A DNA stretch of 63,471 nt, the filler included, from Folioceros fuciformis (Eukaryota): NCBI GenBank assembly GCA_049999805.1. It is 10 parts of 10 records of this genome, joined end to end, with 100 filler letters (N's around TTAATTAATTAA, not from the genome) between each part and the next. Parts side by side here need not be neighbours in the genome. Positions count along the whole stretch, not along the records: positions 15,094 to 27,486 come from JBNGIO010005132.1; 9 more parts are not named here. One strand, given 5' to 3'. Both the position numbers and the translations under genes were made by a program. The notes beneath the pieces are model-generated. The model searched no databases and was not told the origin of the DNA. It saw only the letters and a list, made by a program, of their open reading frames with translations. Below are positions 14,994-27,586 of the stretch, piece after piece (the first letter of the stretch is position 1; each line of letters opens with the position of its first letter).

Positions 14994-15093
14994 NNNNNNN
15001 NNNNNNNNNNNNNNNNNNNNNNNNNNNNNNNNNNNNNTTAATTAATTAANNNNNNNNNNNNNNNNNNNNNNNNNNNNNNNNNNNNNNNNNNNN
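14994..15093. other. Artificial contig linker (N-run with TTAATTAATTAA). The same linker occurs at 27487-27586, 29733-29832, 31623-31722, 35628-35727, 48248-48347, 53374-53473, 58100-58199 and 62234-62333
   Basis: Nine identical 100-bp spacers, each with a core that has stops in all six frames. Flanking sequences break mid-gene. Confidence 0.97.
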
Positions 15094-15416
15094 GGATCGC
15101 TGAGGGGTATGAGATAGCGTCTAAGGTCGCCACTGAGCACTTGAATCACATCGCGCACAAGTCTGACTTCAGTGCAGATAATGCTGAGCCTCTCATTCAG
15201 ACGTGCATGACGACGCTATCTTCCAAGATAGTGGGTAGGTGCAAACGGATGCTGGCGGAAATTGCAGTGAAAGCTGTGCTTGCTGTGGCGGATTTGGAGA
15301 GACGTGATGTCAACCTTGACTTGATTAAGGTTGAAGGAAAAGTTGGTGGTAGGCTAGAGGATGCAAAGATTGCCATTCTGACCTGCCCATTCGAACCACC
15401 GAAGCATCCCCAATAG
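15094..15416 (+). pseudogene. CCT5: Intronless CCT5 (TCP-1 epsilon) fragment with an internal deletion, copy A
   Basis: [16 protein letters not shown]...[71 protein letters not shown]. The conserved segment containing DKDMSHPQMPK is missing, and the match ends after PPK. Confidence 0.9.
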
Positions 15417-15492
15417 AGTTGGGTAGTTAGGATAGACATGGTAGGAGGGGTGGTTTAAGCGTTTAAAGACACTGTTTAATGCGCTTAAGCGC

Positions 15493-15911
15493 TGTAGCAG
15501 GTGAGGGACCATCAATGGCTGCCTACCCGATCAACCACCCCAACCGACAGTAGCCAGGAATTCTATAAGAGTCATAGGACTCAAGAGATAAAGTGGTTGG
15601 TTTTCGTTTCTTACCAAGCCTGAGCACACTTGTTCGTGTTCCAACAAGTGCGCTCCTGCCGGCTGCGTCGTCTGCAGTGTCTGGTAGCTTGGTGGGGATC
15701 GTGACGGCCCAGACGCCTGGGTGTGAGGTGCCGTGTTTCGCACGCACACTCGTGGGTGTCCTACTGGAGTGAGTCGCCGACAGCAGAGGCGTGTTTGGCA
15801 GACAGGAGGTGTATTCAGGTTCGCGAGGGTCGTGGTAGAAGAAAGGTACGAATAGAGTCGCATACACACAACTAGGACAGGCCCTCCTTCGAGGGAACGA
15901 AACCTGCTAGA
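15493..15911 (+). mobile_element. Putative LTR (~420 bp)
   Basis: Starts TGTAGCAGG and ends CCTGCTAGA (9-bp inverted termini, 1 mismatch). It has an internal TATA-like CTATAAGA near 15563 and is followed by a decayed gag-like region. Confidence 0.45.
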
Positions 15912-16299
15912 CTACACGACAGCGGGATAGGTGTGGCCGCTAGAGGGAAGCCCCTGGTGTCCCCGGATTCTTTCCACCACAAGAGGCGAGTGAAGGAAGA
16001 CTTCCAGTCGTGGAGCGCGACTAGGAGAAAAGCAACGGCAAGACACCACAGGCAGGTGTGGTCCCCGCTGTGATTAGGAGTCAAGGAAGGAACAACGGGA
16101 CTTGGAGCACGAAGGCAGACGGAGTGACAACAAGTCGCCGCGGTCATCAGGGTCGGAAAGCATAGGCCTGGGGAGATAAGCGGGGAAGCACGTAGCAGTC
16201 GAGAAGGAGGCAGGTGTTTGAGGGAACGGAGCTTGGAGTGGAGCAGAGGATGGTGACTCAACCAGGGCTAGCGATTTCCACTGTGCAATGGCCCAACAT

Positions 16300-17860
16300 G
16301 GACCACTAGAAGTTTCGTGCAGGTTCCTTAGTACAGGAGCTGGGGCTAAGATTCATGGGGAAGAAGTGGTGTTATGATAGCCCCGAGCTAGTACAAGAGT
16401 GTGCCTAGTGCTTGAAAGTGAGGGCGTTAGAGGGAAGCTTGAGGCAGGGACTGCAGGACTGGAGCCTGGAGCTTTTTTGGGAGGTATACAAACGGGAAGA
16501 GGCAGAGTAGGGAGGCATCGTAATCGACCTTCAGAGAAAGAATACTCTAAAAACTGCCGTGACTGCCCTCATGAAGCCTGGAGAGGTGAGAACTAACAAC
16601 GACTAGGTAGTCCGCCAATTGGCTTCAGCCCCATTGGTGGGGCTAGCCAAATGGATTTTGTGTTTTTTGCAGAGCAAGAAGATAGATCATATGGCCGATC
16701 ACTTTCTAGTCTTCCTTCATGAGGTAGTTAGTAGTGCCCAAGTGAACTGGACCTGAATTATTTTCGAATGGGCATGTGAAGAAAGGGCCAACCTATTAGC
16801 GAATTCACCCCGTCCCTCCCTTCTCTCACCCTTCCTGATACATCTTTTTATGCATACTAAGTGCTTAACCGAGTTGGAAGTGGTGTCCTCTCTCCATAGT
16901 TGGAAGCCAGTTAGGGAGGTCAAGGTTGAGGAAGAACCTAGAAATGTTTCAAGGGAGGACTCTAGCAGTTGGGAGTCTGAGATGCTGAGAGATTCAAAAG
17001 GGGATGTTGCGACGATCAAGAAGAGGAAGGCTCGGACCAAGGAAGGTGAAGGTGCTGAAGGAAAAGCTGGAAGAGGTTGAAGGAAGAAATAAGGTAGCGG
17101 AGGATCGATGGAGGGCGAGTGACGAGTTGTTGGGCAAAGCACACGAGGAGTTGAAGGTACTGGCAAATCAACAGGAAGCCCTAGTGAAGCAGGTGAAAAC
17201 AGCCCATGTCACAATTGAAGAGCTTCAAAACAAAATCTCCCTGACTCAGGAGCCAGTGGCGACCCTAGAGAAATTCAAAAAGGTAGCTGAGAGATACAAG
17301 AGGGAACGGGATGAGGCAAGGGCTAAGGTAGGGAGATCAAAGAAGGGGAAGAGTTCCGCTACCGCAATGGCCGAAGCCGCAACCGTGGTGGAATCGACCA
17401 CGGTTGCCAAACCCGGAACTAGGGTGGCTGAACCAGCAACCATGGCGGAAGGAGGGACGACGGTGGTGGAACCAGCTACCGACGAACCTATGGCAAGGGA
17501 GCAGGCAACACCCTTGGAATGCAAGAGGTAGCCACCCCATGATTGTCAATGAGAGGAGAGGGTAAGGACCTCTCTAGTAGGGGGCGACATTGTGCTGCTA
17601 CATAGGAATAAAGATACCCATGTCCTTGGCTTCCAATTGCATGGTGAGCGGGTACTCACTCTAAATGTGTATGTGGTGGTTGGAACAGGAGGGGGCAGGA
17701 ACTACTGGCTGCATCTTTAACAGCCACATGCTATTACCATTGGTTCTTGCGAATGGGTGCTGGAGTGTACACTTCATAGGTAAGACTGCAAGAGATGACA
17801 GAAGAGGACGTGCGGGCTTGGGTGGAAGACCACATAGTGTGGTAGTCTAGTGATGAAGTT
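16300..17860 (+). mobile_element. Decayed retroelement coiled-coil (gag-like) ORF region, copy 1
   Basis: ORF 17004..17531 is coiled-coil (KVAERYKRERDEARAKV), and a downstream frame reads EMTEEDVRAWVE. Both segments match 23500-24790. Confidence 0.5.
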
Positions 17861-18408
17861 CCGTCCCCGAGACCTCCATCTCCACCTTTGATGCAAGGCA
17901 CCATCTAGCTTAGAATGAAGGATGTCCATGTCCTAGAGGGGAAAAAAAAAAGTGAAATAAACTAAACTAAATACACTCATAGGAAACAAGTTTTTTCTTA
18001 GTCTTTGCTTGTAGGAAAATCCTATTAATACAGCCTCGGGCTAACACAGAAATACAAAGAGAAGATGAAAACACAAGAGGACATCTCACCACCCATGAAG
18101 TTCTAAGACTAAGGGCCACCTATCAGTCAATCATCGGTTGGTAGGAGAAGAGGCAACGTTGTAGGAAGTTTACTTGTAGCATGTACAAATGCATGAAAAG
18201 AATTAAGAAAGGAGAGAGCAAAAGCACTTGCTCGCTTCATAAACATTTGCACACCATAATCAATAGCATTCTCAAACAACCTCCCCTTGTAAATTGAGCT
18301 CACCTAGCCCGTAAACACATACTACTAGTAACCTAGGCAAATAACAAACACACAAACATGTGAAGCCATGGAGCCACAATCCTACTTATATCACATACAC
18401 TCTCACAG

Positions 18409-18708
18409 CCCATGGATAAGCCATACGTCTTATAATTTAGGGTACATATCTTTGAGTATATAAGGAGCCCCATAAGCCATACGTCTTATAATTTAGTGTA
18501 CATAACTTTGAGTATATAAGGAGCCCATAAGCCATAAGTCTTATAATTTAGGGTACATAACTTTGAGTATATAAGGAGCTCATAAGCCATACATCTTATA
18601 ATTAGGGTACATAACTTTGAATATGTAAGGAGCCCATGGGCCTCAAGTCTCATAATTTAGGGTGCATAACTTTGAGTACATAAGGAGTGCATGCGCCTCA
18701 AGTCTCAT
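18409..18708. repeat. Tandem repeat, ~55-bp unit, ~5.5 copies
   Basis: The unit cccataagccatacgtcttataatttagggtacataactttgagtatataaggag is repeated with few substitutions. Confidence 0.9.
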
Positions 18709-19059
18709 AAAGTATACTTGGGCTGATGTTTATAATCGGATTTGAGTTCTTTACCTATCCATACGTGTGCTAACGTTGAGGTTCTAGTCTTCTTTTGGTC
18801 TTCATTCTTTGCATCAACTTCATCTATACTTTCGACAATCATGACACTATTCTTATTATTGGCTCTTAACAATGAAGACTTTTTTCTCATTACTCTATTG
18901 GTTTTTTCTTTCTCCATCGACTTCTTCCCGTAGTATATACTTTCAAGGAGAGTTGTTGGTTTCCTCTTTCTCCATCCGCTTCTTCCCATAGTTTATACTT
19001 TCAAGGAGAAATGTTGGTTTCTCTTTCTCCACCGGCTCAACTAAAGTAATAGATATGCG

Positions 19060-22000
19060 ACCAATAATAATTTATTATAATGCAAAAGGATAGGGATAGG
19101 GCTACAACAACAATCAACAGGGATGTGGCTACAACCATGAATAGGGATGTGGCACCAACAAATGAACAGGGATGCGGCACCAACATATGACAAGGATGTG
19201 GCACCAACATACGAACAAGGATGTGGCTATTGTAGGGTTATTAAAGCCCAATGTGCTTAGACTAATGTGTTTAGTCTAAGATTAGTGTCTAGTTAAGTAG
19301 CATTAGTTTAGATTAGCTTAAGCTAATATGTAGGAAGCTTCTTGCGCAGCTTCCTATGCGCTTTCTGTGAAGCTTCCTAGGGAGCTCTTCTAGAGGGTAT
19401 AAATACCCCCTTGAGCTCCCTTGTATATAGAGACTCTCTGTGAGAGTGTGACCTCTCCTTTCTTCTCCTCTTTGCCTCTCCTCCTCTCCTCCTTCACCAT
19501 GTAGCTTCTTCTAGCAATCTTACAGCTACAACCACGAACACAATAATACTTTATTATAATGGCTAAGGATAGGCATAGGGCTGCAACAACAATCAACAAG
19601 GATGCGGCTACAACCATGAATAGGGATGCGGCACCAACGACGAACACAATAATACTTTATTATATAATGGCTAAGGATAGGGATAGGGGTGCAACAACAA
19701 TCAACAGGGATGGGGCTACAACCATGAAGAGTGATGCGGCACCAACAAATGAACAGGGATGCGGCACCAACATATGAACAGGAATGCGGCACCAACAAAT
19801 GAACAGGAATGTGGCACCAACAAATGAATAGGGATGCGGCACCAACAAATGAACAGAGATGCGGCACTAACATATCAACAGGGATGCGGCACCAACATAT
19901 GAACAGGGATGTGGCACCAACATATGAACAAGGATGCAGCACCAACATATGAACAGGGATGCAGCTACAACCACGAACACAATAATACTTTATTATAATG
20001 GATAAGGATAGGGATAAGGTTGCAACAACAATCAACAGGGATGTGGCTACAAACATGAATAGGGATGCGGCACCAACAAATGAACAAGGATGAGGCACAA
20101 ACCGCAAACACTAATACTTTATTATAATGGCTAAGGATAGGGATAGGGCTGCAACAACAATCAACAGGTATGCGGCTACAACCATCAATAGGGATGCCGC
20201 ACCAACAAATGAACACCTCATGTGCGCCCATATGCTAGGACACCTCAATCGCAACAACAACAATGAATACGGATGCAGTAATAGAATGAAAAGGGATGCA
20301 GTAACAGTGCATCAATAGGGATGCGACAACAACGGATGAACAAGGGTGTGGCTACACAGTGATGAATAGGGATACGGCTACAACCAAGAATAGAGATGCA
20401 GGTACAACCATGAATAGCGATGCGGCAACAACCCATCAATAGGGATACTACTACAACCAAGAATAGGGATCCATGTAGAACCATGCACATGGATGTGGCA
20501 TTAGCGCTTTAATAGGGATGTGGCAACAACGGATGAACAAGGATGCGGCAACAACAATGAACAAGGATGTGGCAACAACAATGAACAAGGATGTGGCAAC
20601 AGCGATGAACAAGGATACGACTACAACCAAGAATAGGGATGCGGCAACATTGGAAAAACAGGGATGCGGCAACAACACGTCAATAGGGATACGACTACAA
20701 CCAAGAATAGGGATGCAGGTACAATCATAAACAAGCATGCGGCAATTGCGCATCAATAGGGATATGGGTACAACCATGAACAGGGATGTGGCAACAACGC
20801 AATAACAGGGATGCGTCAACAACGGATGAACAAGGATGCGGCAACAATGATGAACAAGGATGCGGCAACAACGATAAACAAGGATACGACTACAACCAAG
20901 AATAGAGATGCGGCAACATTGGAAAAACAAGGATGCGGCAACAGCGCATCAATAGGAATACGACTACAACCAAGAATAGGGATGCAGGTAAAACTATAAA
21001 CAAGCATGCGGCAATCGCGCACCAATAGGGATACGTCTACAACAAAGAATAGGGATGCGGGTACAACCATGAACAGGGATGCGGCAACAACGCATTAACA
21101 AGGATGCAGAAACAATGGATGAATAGGGATGTGGCAACAATGGATGAAAAAGGATGCATCAACAACGGATGAACATGAATGTGGCAACAATGGATGAAAA
21201 AGGATGCGGCAACAATGGATGAATAGAGATGCAGCAACAATGGATGAACACGGATGAAGCAACAACGGATGAACAAGGATACAACTACAACCACGAATAG
21301 AGATGCAGGTGCAACCATGAACAGCGATGCGGCAACAACCCATCAACAGGGATACTGCTACAACCAAGAATAGGGATGCACGTACAACCATGCACAGGGA
21401 TGTAGCAACAACGCATTAATGGGGATGCGGCAACAACGGATGAAGAAGGAAGCGACAACGGACGAAGAAGGATGCAGCAACAACGGATGAAGAAGGATGC
21501 AGCAACAACGGATGAAGAAGGATGTGGCAACATCTATGAACAAGNNNNNNNNNNNNNNNNNNNNNNNNNNNNNNNNNNNNNNNNNNNNNNNNNNNNNNNN
21601 NNNNNNNNNNNNNNNNNNNNNNNNNNNNNNNNNNNNNNNNNNNNGGATGAAGAAGGATGTGGCAACATCTATGAACAAGGATACGGCTACAAGCAAGAAT
21701 AGGGATGCGGCAACATTGGGAAAACAAGGATGCGGCAACAGCGCATCAACAAGGATACGACTACAACCAAGAATAGGGATGCAGCAACAACAACATTGAA
21801 TATAGATGTAGTAATAGAATAAAAAGGGATGCGACAATAGTGCATCAGTAGGGATGCGACAACAGCGAATGAACAAGGATGTGGCAACACAAGGATGAAT
21901 AGGGATACGGCTACAACCAAGAATAGAGATGCAAGTACAACCATGAACAGGGATGCGGCAACAACCCATCAACAGGGATACTGCTACAACCAAGAATAGG

Positions 22001-23435
22001 GATGCAGGTACAACTATGCATAGGGATGCAACAATAGCGCATTAACATGGATGCAACAACAGTGCATTAATAAGGATGCGGCAACAACGGATGAATAAGA
22101 ATACGACAATAACAAATGAACAAAGATGCGACAACAATAGAAGAATAGGGATGCGGCAACAACGATGAACAAGGATATGGCTACAACCAAGAATAGGGAT
22201 GCAGCAACATTGGAAAAACAAGGATGCGGAAACAATATATCAACAAGGATACGCATATAACCAAGAATAGGGATTCAGATACAAATATAAAAAAGCATGC
22301 GGCAATAGAGTATCAACAAGGATACGGCTACAACTAAGAATAGAGATGCAGGTACAACCATGAACATGGATGGGGCAACAACACATTAATAGGGATGCGG
22401 CAACAATGGATGAATAGGGATACGGCTACAACTAGGAATAGGGATGCAGCAACAATGGATGAACATCGATGCGGCAACAACACATCAACAAGGATACAGG
22501 TACAACCAAGAATAGGGATGCAAGTACAACCATAACAACCATGCGGCAACAGCACATCAACAAGGATACGGCTACAACCAAGAATAGGGATGCAGGTACA
22601 ACCATAAACAAGCATGCGACAACAGTACATCAACAAGGATGCGGCAAGAACGAATGAACAAGGATGTAGCAACAACGATGAATAGGGATACGGCTACAAC
22701 CAAGAATAGGGATGTAGGTACAACCATGAACAGGGATGTGGCAACAGCAAACGAACAAGGTTGCCTCCGGAATGATGCATGGCAAGTAACAACACTGCAA
22801 CATTAAATTGCAATGATAGGGCAACCCCATAATACAGGAGGAATAATTATCAAGGGAACCATGATGGGGAATACGAAAAGGGAAGCTCAACCATACTTGG
22901 CAGCACCTTAATAGGAACCATATATGATGGCAACAACACCTCAAGCATGACCATACTTTATGACACCTCAACCGCAACAAGACATGATGGCTCAACAACC
23001 ATACATGATGGCAACAACACCNNNNNNNNNNATGGCAACAACACCTCAAGCATGACCATACTTTATGACACCTCAACCGCAACAAGACATGATGGCAATT
23101 CTGAAGACAAAACCATTAGATTCAATGATGGCAGGTGCAACGATAAGGTACCCCCAACAATGTAAGATGATAGCAAGTCATGAACAGCGGTGAACAGGGA
23201 TGCGGCCACATCGCATGAACAGAATGCGGCAACATCGGATGAACAGGGATGCAGCAACATCGAATGAACAAGAATGCAACAACAACAATGAATAGGGATG
23301 CGGAAACATCATAATGAACAAGGATGCAGCAACATCAAATGAACAGGAATACAACAACAACGATGAACAGGGATGTGGCGACAACCATGCACAAGGATGC
23401 AGCCATAGCAGCGGTGAACACAAATGCAACAACGA
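19060..23435. repeat. Large degenerate minisatellite array (~21-24-bp monomer atgaacagggatgcggcaacaac) with higher-order blocks
   Basis: Many gggatgcggc(a/t)acaa(c) monomers. A higher-order landmark, acattgg(a/g)aaaaca, recurs at about 20650, 20920, 21715 and 22210. There are internal N gaps. Confidence 0.9.
19231..19524 (+). mobile_element. Solo LTR (294 bp) inserted in the minisatellite
   Basis: TGTA...TACA termini and a 5-bp target-site duplication GCTAT/GCTAC (1 mismatch). TATAAATA lies near 19398, followed by CT-rich tracts. The uninterrupted target sequence gatgcagctacaaccacgaacac is visible at ~19958. Confidence 0.85.
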
Positions 23436-23499
23436 AGATGTAAAAACTTTCCAATTTTCTTAAACTCTTTTTGTAGTTCAGGGCAACTTGCCACTGAAT

Positions 23500-24900
23500 G
23501 CACCTCAGGAAAAGGTGCTAGGAGAGAGAGCGGGCCCGGCTAAGGTGACAGGCGAGTTAGGGCAAGCACTGGAGGAAGAACCCATTCTAGGATGGGAGGA
23601 GATTTTCAAGAACATTTCTGGGGTGACCAGGCTATAGGAGGAGGATTTGGCCCGAGTGCGCACGCTACTGGGANNNNNNNNNNNNNNNNNNNNNNNNNNN
23701 NNNNNNNNNNNNNNNNNNNNNNNNNNNNNNNNNNNNNNNNNNNNNNNNNNNNNNNNNNNNNNNNNNNNNNNNNTGGGAAGGCAGATTTTGGACAGAAGGA
23801 TGGCTACCGGAGGCGCACCATAGCAGGTGGATTTACTAGGCCTGACTGCGGCCATGGTGTAGGCACAGGCAGATATGCTCGACCAAGCTGCTAGGGCACT
23901 GACTTGGTTGAGCATGCAGGGGCAGAAGGAAGCGGAGGCACAGGTTAAGTTGACTGAGGCTGAAGTGAGTCGGTAGCAGCTGGAAGAGATTCGACAGGCC
24001 CTGAGCGCGGCCAAGGACCAAGCGCAGGAAGAAGCACGCTGAGCCCCAGAAGAGATGCAGACGTTGAAGGAATAGCAGGAGCTGCTCTTGACTCAAGTCA
24101 GGGAGGCCCATGGAGCCAATCAAGAAATGCAACAGGAGTTGTTGAGGGCCCAGGAGCAGAAAGCAGCTGTAGTGGAAAGAGTGCAGAAGTTGGCGGACAG
24201 GTATAAGCGGGAACAAGACGAAGCTCGAAGTCAGGTGAGGGAAAAGGGAAAACTAGGCGAAGTAGCAGAACAGCGATAGAGGTAGCCAAAGGGGCTACCG
24301 GTCAGAGAGAGACCACGCCAATAGAGGAAAGCCCGACCAAGGTAGAGAATGCAGTGACCATTGAGGAACTAGCACCCGGCAGAGCTAGAATGGCAACCTG
24401 CATCAAGAGGATGAAGAACCGGCTGGAACTGGCAGCTAGGGGGATGGAGGATCCTCCAGTGCCATTGGAGAGCAGAAGACAGGCAATTCGGGGTAGCCCA
24501 TGGGAGGAGGGGGTATGCACCTCATCCGCACCAGAAGGCCAGCTTGTATTGTAGCATCCGAAAGAGGCAACTTATGTTCATGGCCTTTATGTGAATGGGG
24601 ACCGTATGCTAAACTTAGTTGTCCATGTGCGTATGGAACTAAGAGGGACAAGGGCCTACTGCCTGCAACTGAGGACTCGCAGGGGATCCTTCTTCCACTG
24701 TTGTCGAGTGTGGGGATTGCCCCCTTACTATTCGGAGGTAGTCCTGGAGGAGTTAACGGAGGAGGAGGAACGAGCATGGGTGGAGTGAGAGCCCGTGATG
24801 GTCCTCAGCAACAAGTGACTGCAGGGAGGAAGGAGCACCCCTCGATAGGGCCCACCCACGCCGCCACTGGAATAGTCAAGCCACTGTGGTGAGGTAGAAA
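23500..24900 (+). mobile_element. Decayed retroelement coiled-coil (gag-like) ORF region, copy 2, directly upstream of the captured chimera
   Basis: RVQKLADRYKREQDEARSQV (24088..24279) and LEELTEEEERAWVE (24591..24788) match copy 1. There are many TAG stops at likely former CAG codons. Confidence 0.5.
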
Positions 24901-25118
24901 TCCTATGGGAGGATTTGTTTGACCAAAGGCGAGGGAGGAGGGATCAAGGTTGGCGGGCAAGAGGAGCACAATGACCGGACAAGAGGCAAGCGCAGCGATA
25001 GGATAGGCCATAGTTATTGCATCTTAGAATAGTATACTGTAGGATCTGGAGAAGATGCTTTCTTGGACCTAATGCCACTCACAATTAAGAGCGCCTGCCT
25101 GTTCACAAACTAGAATTA

Positions 25119-26888
25119 ATGGCGGCTGCGGATCTGCCATCGTGTACAAGAGGCCTATTGGCGCCTCACCAAAGCAGCAAGAAACTGACATTCCAACCCG
25201 AGGAAGCTTGGCGACGAGCGTTGCCAGATAGGGAGATCCGGGCAGGTGAGTGTGTGCGTGTGAGCTCTCGATCTTTGGGGACCGGGTCTCGTTCCCTCCC
25301 ATTCGGGGGTATAGGAGGGGGGGATCTGACTGCGTCAATCCCGGAGGAATTGCCAAGCTCGCCTGAAAGCAATGCAGTTAGCAACCCAGTCGGAAAGGAT
25401 TCACCGGCTCTCTTCCTGAGGCGGTCTGTGAAACGGCCCAAGACCCAGCTGCGGTTGGACTGGCAGGAAGGTGCTTGGGTGCGTGAGCTTGTTCAAGGTC
25501 GGCCTGATTCTGAAAAAACAGGGGAGGAGGCAGACGTCGACCGGTCGGAAGGTGGAGGTGAACTTGACGTTCAGCCTCCAGGGTCGGATGGCGGAGGAGG
25601 GAGCCAGGGACCGGGGTGGTCTCTGGAGGCGCTGGGGCTGCTGGATATGGTGTTCGAGGACGACGCAGCTGCGGAGGCGGTTGTTGTGGAGACGGTGATG
25701 AAGATTAGGGGAAGCTTGGATGCACTGGCGGATAGGGTGGAGGATTCCCTGTCGGAGGAGGAACGGGAGAAGGCGCTGCAGATGATAGCTGAGGAGCAGG
25801 AGAGGGAGTGGGAGGAGAATGTGAACGTGCAGGCTAAAATGTTGCGGCGGCTGGAGAACCTTCTGGACACCAGTGCTGTGGTGGATTGCTTGATCAAGCG
25901 CATTGCGAACGTTGCCTTTATCAAACGCGAGGGTAAGACTCCCAGTGTGGATTTGCTTTCCATTCAGAAATCAGGTCAGCAGCTCTACCAGGCTTTAGGG
26001 GAGACGTGGAACCGGTTGAAAGGACGTCCCACCGCGACTTCCTCCGAGCCTATAACTGCCAAGTTGCCTAGGCCTCCTCCTTTGAGGCCGCAGCTGGAGG
26101 AGAAGAAGCTTGGGCTCATCTTGTAGGTGGAGGCGCTGGACAAGAAGCTTGGAGATGCCAGCAGGGGCAGGGAATCTAGGTTGAGGCAAAAGAATGTGCT
26201 GCAGCGCACTCAGGTTGCTGTGGAGATTTGGGGCTTAGATGACGAGGTGAATGAGCTGAGGCAGATACTGGCTGTCAGGACTCTGCAACTGGAGATGCTA
26301 CTCATATACATGTATCTCGAGGAAGACGTCATGCAGATTTCGGATGACGTGCGGACTAACGAGGAGGAGAGCTTGCTGGTGGCAGAGTTTGGTCTCCTGG
26401 ATGCGGATCTATCCAAGCTTCGGCTTGCTATCGACAGCAGCCAGGCTGGAATGATTCAAGATGAAGAGCTGGAGGATCTAGTGGCTGACATACTGGACCT
26501 TAAGAATAGGCTGGGCATTGTGGAGGAACCATCCATACCCTTTGCTCAGTGTATGCAGCTCTCCATAGCAGAGGCTCGATTGAAGTTCACTACTGGCGAG
26601 GACTTCGGCTTCTTGGTGGAGACCTATCGTATGTTGGCCGCCTTTTCTGGGCAGCTGTGACAGGAACTACTCTGAAGCCTAGAGAAGTGTAAACTGTTCG
26701 ACGCACAGCAAGAGATGTTCTCACCATGGTTCCTTTCACCATCATCCTCATTGCTCCGCTCACTCCACAGTGGGCCACGTTCTGGTGTTTAGGGTACTAC
26801 GCGGCGCTACTTCCCTGGATTTTTCCCAAGCTCCTTCTCTACGAAACGGCAGGAGGTGATGAAGCGGTATGAGCTGATTCGGGAGCAG
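25119..26888 (+). pseudogene. Intronless copy of a plastid-type LETM1-domain protein gene (5' partner of the chimera)
   Basis: Starts with ATG and a transit-peptide-like N-terminus, then a coiled-coil middle. The C-terminal frames read [79 protein letters not shown], a LETM1-like signature. Disabled by TAG 26124-26126, a TAA near 26690 and frameshifts. Confidence 0.75.
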
Positions 26889-27486
26889 GAGCAGAAGGCT
26901 CGCCTGCAAGGGTTGGATGCCCAAAAGGCCAACATTTTGGCAGCTCGTTCCGTGGCCAAGATTCTGAGAACCTTGCTTGGCCCCAAGGGCATGGACAAGA
27001 TGCTGCAGAGCACGGACGGCGATGTCACTATGACAAACGATGGGGCTACAATACTTGAGCAGATGGAGGTTGAGAATCAAATTGGGAAGCTGATGGTTGA
27101 GCTTTCGAAAAGTCAGGATTTTGAGATTGGTGACGACACAACTGGGTTGTAGTTACAGCAGGTACACTCTTGGAGCAGGCGGAAGAGCTACTAGATTGGG
27201 GCATCCACCCCATTCGGATCGCTGAGGGGTATGAGATAGCGTCTAAGGTCGCCACTGAGCACTTGAATCACATTGCCCACAAGTCTGACTTCAGTGCAGA
27301 TAATGCTGAGCCTCTCATTCAAACGTGCACGACGACGCTATTTTCCAAGATAGTGGGTAGGTGCAAACGGATGCTGGTGGAAATTGCAGTGAAAGTTGTG
27401 CTTGCTGTGGCGGATTTGGAGAGACGTGATGTCAACCTTGACTTGATTAAGGTTGAAGGAAAAGTTGGTGGTAGGCTAGAGGATGC
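26877..27486 (+). pseudogene. CCT5: Intronless CCT5 N-terminal part fused in frame to the LETM1-like copy, copy B
   Basis: [90 protein letters not shown], a frameshift, then [22 protein letters not shown]...GGRLED. Truncated by the contig end. Confidence 0.92.
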
Positions 27487-27586
27487 NNNNNNNNNNNNNN
27501 NNNNNNNNNNNNNNNNNNNNNNNNNNNNNNTTAATTAATTAANNNNNNNNNNNNNNNNNNNNNNNNNNNNNNNNNNNNNNNNNNNN

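Follow-up and report, generated by a model that had tools for sequence, protein, structure and literature searches.

How sequences of two host genes, one LETM1-like and the other CCT5, came to be joined without introns, and in what kind of DNA, is the question raised by this locus of Folioceros fuciformis. The window, i.e. the whole stretch of 63,471 nucleotides that was analysed, is made up of several contigs that are not linked to each other, with N-flanked TTAATTAATTAA spacers between them (e.g. 14994-15093 and 27487-27586), and adjacency across these is not real; positions 15094-27486 are contig C5132 of the same genome (assembly of 87 Mb in 7240 contigs). A PPR protein ending in GRP would agree with a hornwort as host. 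The initial annotation, made from the sequence, described positions 25119-27486 as a chimeric processed gene in which the C-terminus of a LETM1-like protein runs in frame into CCT5 at an IREQ microhomology, and ascribed it to reverse transcriptase (RT) switching between co-packaged mRNAs. Our analysis retains the RT switching and discards the gene: the chimera is very probably passenger DNA in the U3 of an Athila-like Ty3/Gypsy LTR, acquired in serial RT template switches onto host mRNAs. Two members of this family are present on the contig, with the following features:

23774-25258, no strand assigned: older high-copy repeat, the interrupted target site of the LTR and the region earlier called gag-like; 78-88% matches to many loci stop at 25252-25261.
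25254-25258, plus strand: expected 5-bp target-site duplication (TSD) GTGCG, predicted from the 5-bp TSDs of the family, as contig C5132 ends inside the LTR.
25259-25291, plus strand: LTR 5' terminus (TG..., integrase end), 94% to nt 1-33 of the native LTR; a PPT precedes the LTR start in other copies.
25279-25602, plus strand: cargo 1, 5' coding fragment of a P-type PPR gene (C6232), 90.7% over 324 nt including two insertions.
25603-25644 (start approximate), plus strand: cargo 2, short linker from a fourth source, overlapping cargo 3 by 10 nt.
25635-26888, plus strand: cargo 3, internal part of the LETM1-like gene (C5773) with two stops and frameshifts, 95.4% to C5773 over 25635-26894.
26880-26888, plus strand: 9-nt microhomology CGGGAGCAG of the LETM1-like and CCT5 donors, from the donor alignment.
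26880-27486, plus strand: cargo 4, spliced CCT5 mRNA from codon 16 until the contig end, lacking introns 1 and 2, each exon matching C6281 at 96-97%.
15094-15405, plus strand: second family member, 3' end of the CCT5 cargo with a shared 72-nt deletion; an 8-nt junction ACCGAAGC (15398-15405) leads back into the LTR.
15406-15981, plus strand: conserved LTR core with a TATA-like motif at 15563, ending in ...CCACA; 3' flank AGAGG.

The join itself was described correctly in its essentials: LETM1-like sequence passes into CCT5 in the same codon frame and without introns, as seen from the Pfam domains (PF07766 in the LETM1-like donor, PF00118 for CCT5) and the donor match. The shared word is real and shorter than the IREQ placed at about 26877-26888; it comprises REQ only, the 9 nt CGGGAGCAG, and the preceding I comes from the LETM1-like gene only, since the CCT5 donor reads FIILREQ. 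An exact 9-nt overlap at a random crossover has a probability of about 1e-4. The join does not lie at the LETM1-like C-terminus, being located 124 codons ahead of the stop of the donor ORF, and it enters CCT5 at codon 16. Nor is the sequence LETM1-like from 25119 onwards: the older repeat (25119-25258), the LTR end (25259-25291), the PPR fragment (25279-25602) and the fourth source (about 25603-25644) precede it, and in place of the two source genes first proposed there are four donors in the window copy and at least ten in the family.

The donors were located elsewhere in the assembly. The CCT5 donor on C6281 contains GT-AG introns of 196 and 144 nt, both precisely absent from the copy at 27033/27034 and 27351/27352. 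The LETM1-like donor (C5773), an open frame with PF07766, is colinear with the copy and itself intronless over 25635-26888, and its cargo therefore cannot show intron loss; the loss of introns claimed for the whole span thus holds for CCT5 and not for the LETM1-like part. Of the two observations named in advance as speaking for DNA-level capture or deletion, intronless parents were found for the LETM1-like part and not for CCT5, and adjacent parents were not found: the donors of the window cargo lie on separate contigs, and CCT5 has another gene upstream. The LETM1-like donor is a conserved gene, with liverwort proteins as its closest named relatives (63-68% identity; 67-68% for Marchantia proteins). 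The PPR donor (C6232) carries PPR Pfam domains and is represented by a 4360-nt contig in run X3, two short contigs of which match the linker (25607-25644) with 0 and 2 differences and then diverge. This run, which we guess to be RNA, holds separate contigs for three donors and none bridging the join, and was counted neither for nor against the chimera.

Upstream of the LTR, the supposed gag-like ORF turned out to be unconnected with the chimera. A Pfam scan of this region in four frames gave no match, the region is the interrupted target repeat, and the LTR responsible for the cargo begins at 25259. In 9/9 homologues checked, the repeat runs on with other sequence beyond 25258, and the ATG at 25119 thus lies outside the chimera. 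None of the collected 3' flanks begins with GTGCG. Further upstream, a degenerate tandem array of about 4.3 kb (19100-23440) has a 24-25-nt unit and a higher-order period of 73-75 nt; near 19230-19520 a short repeat breaks into the array, and the same repeat is found next to the LTR in L005 (C1756).

The boundary at 25259 (TGTGAGCTCTCG...) is sharp, with 29 matches to the 23-nt start against 0 for a reversed control, and the opposite LTR end (...CCACA) was found at window position 15981 and 34 places, after one false match of 35 had been dropped. Copies with both ends on one contig show a 5-bp TSD in 4/4 cases (three exact, one with one mismatch), and six further 5'/3' halves pair across contigs (9 exact flank pairs against about 1 expected). 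The LTR at 15406-15981 is probably a solo LTR, its flanking AGAGG pairing with the sequence just ahead of the LTR start on C358. Behind four LTR 3' ends an AT-rich spacer is followed by a PBS of TGGCGCCGTTGCC type, exact in C5872 and with one or two differences in C5600, C4232 and C5566; this is the Athila PBS in the relevant part of 10.64898/2026.03.20.713144. A PPT stands ahead of 5/29 LTR starts, three of which are regular, and these three are native starts that follow the integrase ORF and the PPT. The cargo LTRs next to a PPT, which would be 3' LTRs, are irregular: in C1342 the PPT is reduced to 11 nt, and C1995 shows an additional LTR start ahead of its integrase end and PPT. In the latter (L074), a 12-nt LTR start is followed by 178 nt in which the integrase of the element ends and the PPT lies, and then by the second LTR start with cargo, an arrangement that is a probable product of aberrant switching or priming. 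Before the PBS and PPT had been found, a DNA transposon with TGT...ACA ends or a Helitron was considered, and both were then rejected; capture by Pack-MULE, Pack-CACTA or Helitron elements was likewise rejected, the TG...CA ends, PBS/PPT and spliced cargo contrasting with the TIRs, TC...CTRR ends and intron-bearing fragments of such elements.

The internal region of the element, pieced together from overlapping contigs, codes for a gag with zinc knuckles followed by PR-RT-RH-INT, which is the Ty3/Gypsy domain order (Pfam on C5927 ORFs). No additional (archaeal) RNase H and no chromodomain were found by Pfam in the ORFs scanned, decayed copies limiting the sensitivity. The integrase ORF ends at the PPT, and the family is called only Athila-like because it lacks the extra ORFs and the large non-coding regions that most OTA elements have. 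This placement, made by features and not by phylogeny, would agree with the PBS type, the AT-rich spacer, the 5-bp TSD and the apparent lack of a chromodomain or extra RNase H described in part of PMC6317226 for the Athila clade of non-chromovirus Ty3/Gypsy elements; unlike most OTA elements, the integrase extends up to the PPT, as the same part reports for Phygy and Selgy. No contig holds a whole element, the internal region being seen in overlapping pieces only, and because the assembly is fragmented no full-length copy was seen whose two LTRs carry identical cargo. Solo LTRs flanked by 5-bp target duplications make up most of the copies; cargo LTRs also occur as 5' LTRs followed by a PBS (C5566 and C5872).

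The native LTR measures 1173 nt, with a TATA-like motif at nt 457. Its first 300 nt, the native U3, match LTR copies only (9/9 matches), and the idea that they are themselves captured host sequence was rejected, no host donor having been found. Cargo substitutes for about 270 nt of the native LTR, upstream of the TATA-like motif, and thus lies within one LTR (nt ~30 to ~300) and not in the internal region between two LTRs. By its position this interval would be U3, the U3/R border being likewise placed by position. In the LTR core, a deletion of about 270 nt at window positions 15751-15774 is present in most cargo LTRs (577 versus about 865 nt) and marks a younger subfamily.

Cargo was found in 22/29 LTR starts and in 25/29 LTR cores having upstream sequence. 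All 25 cargo cores end in one CCT5 remnant joined at ACCGAAGC, and 19 contigs contain LETM1-like sequence, of which usually no more than a 37-nt remnant is left. A count of chimera copies, as the initial annotation had proposed, showed the window LETM1-like/CCT5 junction also in C5304, C648 and C2565, i.e. in four contigs with pairwise identities of 95.6-97.7%. Ten donors were located: two PPR genes, the LETM1-like gene, CCT5, FIP37/WTAP, a DUF1195 gene, MET1, an ECA-type P-ATPase and two uncharacterised loci; matches to C1612, C6191 and C1036 (74-91%) were excluded from this number, and a fragment of the pseudouridine-glycosidase family is present among the cargo with no donor located. Splicing is evident beyond CCT5, as 8 of 10 skips in the FIP37/WTAP cargo have exact GT..AG ends (at least 8 introns removed) and the DUF1195 cargo is without 2 introns. 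All donors that could be oriented by Pfam (8/8) are in sense. The cargo replaces LTR sequence and is not inserted into it, shows microsimilarity at its junctions, and has neither poly(A) nor a TSD of its own.

Individual cargoes differ in extent. FIP37/WTAP mRNA, whose product we take to be an m6A-writer subunit, begins in its 5' UTR (C5077, L099/L054; C4030, L101) and is represented by pieces in 13 contigs. MET1 pieces are present in 10 contigs, among them L109:990-2546 on the minus strand (C5214), L026 (C5620), C5872 and C4576, with an open frame of 519 aa containing DNMT1-RFD and BAH domains; C5620 and C5214, which have the common flank TTAAT, are probably one solo LTR with more than 2 kb of MET1 mRNA, and the MET1 donor is assembled for its 5' part only (end of C5373). 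The cargo at L027:597-843 (C5451) presumably resembles the spliceosomal GTPase EFTUD2/Snu114, judging by a motif; it had no Pfam match in the frames scanned, and its donor was not located. In C978 (L003), C1756 (L005) and C1050 (L007), differing partners meet CCT5 within about 10 nt of one GAGCAG-rich site or at the CCT5 5' UTR, which may point to a switching hotspot. About 330 nt of multi-gene cargo in C2692 (L077) carry a secondary internal inversion.

Microhomology was measured at the junctions with both donors located, one duplicate of 18 having been dropped (C3777 is the same as C5718). The 17 distinct junctions overlap by 2-12 nt (median 6), 14 of them by at least 4 nt, against a null mean of 0.69 and P(>=4)=0.02; the overlap was taken as the longest run touching the crossover zone, a measure slightly more lenient than the null. 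Four junctions have 2-3 nt only or an imperfect overlap. In a tree of 28 LTR cores (C648, too short, was left out, and C1050, a truncated long branch, was dropped), the window-type C5304 groups with native LTRs on a 99/94 branch, native monophyly being weak (82/38); judging from this one tree row, the PPR/LETM1-like/CCT5 form of the window is probably close to the founder.

The RT template switching on co-packaged mRNAs proposed at the outset was supported by the intron loss (CCT5, FIP37, DUF1195), the microhomology at 17 junctions, the sense orientation and the location within an LTR; the LTR anatomy, the replacement of U3, the spliced sense cargo, the amplification and the cargo in PBS-flanked 5' LTRs are direct observations. 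During replication of an LTR element, U3 is copied first after the minus-strand (first) strand transfer, and it templates both LTRs. RT would leave the element RNA for a co-packaged CCT5 mRNA at ACCGAAGC while copying U3, would then switch from mRNA to mRNA, from CCT5 to the LETM1-like transcript at CGGGAGCAG and on to the linker and the PPR transcript, and would return to the element RNA near the PPT. Switches in U3 may do no harm as long as promoter core and integrase end are retained, and the cargo would be inherited as LTR sequence because U3 templates both LTRs. Later cycles could swap in more mRNAs, leaving the 37-nt LETM1-like remnant on the 5' side and the CCT5 remnant on the 3' side, and LTR-LTR recombination would leave solo LTRs.

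The same mosaics might have arisen at the DNA level, with double-strand breaks in LTRs patched by cDNAs and the products spread by ectopic gene conversion between solo LTRs. Break repair templated by cDNA is reported (PMC4516963), microhomology marks DNA repair as well, one copy carries the inversion in C2692, and solo LTRs are the majority of copies. We nevertheless consider this route distinctly improbable, given that all cargo sits within a single 270-nt interval of a single LTR family and the oriented donors are uniformly in sense, that copies occur at many sites, each with its own TSD, and that cargo is present in PBS-flanked 5' LTRs and its remnants are nested.

A functional LETM1-CCT5 chimeric gene with its frame kept by selection is far less probable still, and for the window copy it is already largely refuted. 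In its favour, the junction and the shared 72-nt CCT5 deletion are in frame, and the LETM1-like part of C5304 has no stop. The claim that the junction kept the frame stands for the join; beyond it, three-frame translation and donor alignment gave no continuous frame in the window copy: stop codons occur at 26124 and at about 26690, 16 nt are deleted after 26589 and one nucleotide after 27146, and small indels are found at about 26763-26798. Shared words of at least 8 nt between the LETM1-like and CCT5 coding sequences are in frame in 17/31 cases, and in-frame joining is therefore the default and needs no selection; the ATG at 25119 is inside the target repeat, and the cargo lies upstream of the TATA-like motif of the LTR. 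Synonymous changes were as frequent as expected from a matched mutation spectrum (25 versus 25.3 in the LETM1-like part, 17 versus 19.6 in CCT5 exon 2); a constraint suggested by raw pN/pS values of 0.54-0.78 was rejected, as the signal vanished after spectrum matching. The copy is thus broken and its changes are neutral, which is not the intact ORF under purifying selection of a functional chimeric retrogene, and the term processed gene does not apply. Methylation signatures were also found: C>T changes affect 17/122 CG, 24/173 CHG and 6/404 CHH sites (about nine-fold enrichment at CG and CHG), and in run X4, apparently a bisulfite-converted library, four cargo-type loose ends among those shown, from one sample, kept 9/9 CG and 3/3 CHG and had 13/13 CHH converted. 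The cargo appears to be methylated and neutrally decaying, with no functional fusion protein.

Least credible of all is a misassembly of two genes and a repeat: although the contigs are short and fragmented, the sole Logan contig over the join (X2 record 15) reaches 28 nt past the microhomology, short of 31 letters, and runs X1, X2 and X4 are one sample that may be the source of the assembly, the junction recurs in four contigs differing by 2.3-4.4%, intronless CCT5 is found in a DNA-run contig at depth 78, neighbouring pieces having about 9-18, the variant joints that other copies show are seen again in X1 and X2, and nine common bases should not suffice to merge paths of an assembly graph.

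Serial template switching into U3, the reading that we prefer, works as LTR-mediated retroposition; the mechanism is known, and the difference is serial capture in the LTR instead of the internal region. In the parts of Tan et al. 2016 (PMC5131818) that treat this process, LTR-mediated retroposition by template switching likewise joins partial intronless mRNA pieces at microsimilarities (median 6 bp in both studies), yields chimeras of several genes (as many as four at a single mouse locus) and is followed by further rounds of transposition. All Drosophila retrocopies described there replace internal ORF parts and are transcribed between LTRs, whereas in the present family a stretch of the LTR ahead of the TATA-like motif has given way to the cargo, which is retained in solo LTRs, carried by most members and drawn from at least 10 genes. 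Maize Bs1 (PMC13317346) and gene-carrying TRIMs (Gao et al. 2016, PMC4717578) are similar, according to portions of these papers, in their exon-only multi-gene fragments, 5-bp TSDs and amplification after capture; TRIM cargo is internal between two LTRs (PMC4717578) and the Bs1 chimera is translated (PMC13317346), in contrast to the neutrally decaying cargo inside a single LTR found here. Foreign sequence resident in an LTR is also described for Cassandra (5S rRNA-like sequence) and for BARE-2, in which Wis-2 sequence is attributed to abnormal template switching (PMC13317346); these are single fixed acquisitions from an RNA gene or another retrotransposon, unlike the ongoing turnover of many protein-coding mRNA fragments seen here. 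Gene capture in maize with epigenetic conflict, as outlined in part of 10.1101/777037, also involves fragments in methylated TEs that could cross-target their donors, although only 3% of the Sireviruses in that outline carry fragments, with no orientation bias, compared with 25/29 cores bearing cargo, in sense, here. Among 425 intact maize LTR elements with gene fragments, none contained fragments from more than one gene under the screen given in the pertinent part of PMC2774510. No report of serial mRNA capture inside LTRs was found in a search of the main texts of freely accessible papers, and LTR-internal cases may be contained in the supplementary tables of Tan et al.

The join of LETM1 and CCT5 is ordinary when taken alone. 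Captures inside an LTR are duplicated in each replication cycle and persist after collapse to a solo LTR; gene searches between two LTRs would miss such cargo, and gene predictors may call chimeric genes from it. With 17 measured nested switch junctions and near-identical donors in the same genome, one small family provides a clean natural record of RT switching, and, with exons of MET1, FIP37 and CCT5 present as methylated copies, epigenetic cross-talk from TE to gene can be tested directly in an early-diverging land plant. A bolder and rather unlikely idea is that U3 acts as a standing mRNA trap and that cargo LTRs displaced the native ones since cargo helps the element. If so, the methylated spliced MET1 and FIP37 cargo could, for example, yield small RNAs that dampen host silencing genes in trans, and the LTR series would document, in fossil form, which mRNAs were present in the cells that the element replicated in. 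An adaptive role of MET1 and FIP37 cargo would be conjecture, and with about ten donors the capture of abundant transcripts explains it equally well. Among retroelement fragments at L103:3614-5464, we also found a PLS-class PPR gene with a C-terminal domain ending in GRP, presumably of the kind that belongs to U-to-C editing lineages.
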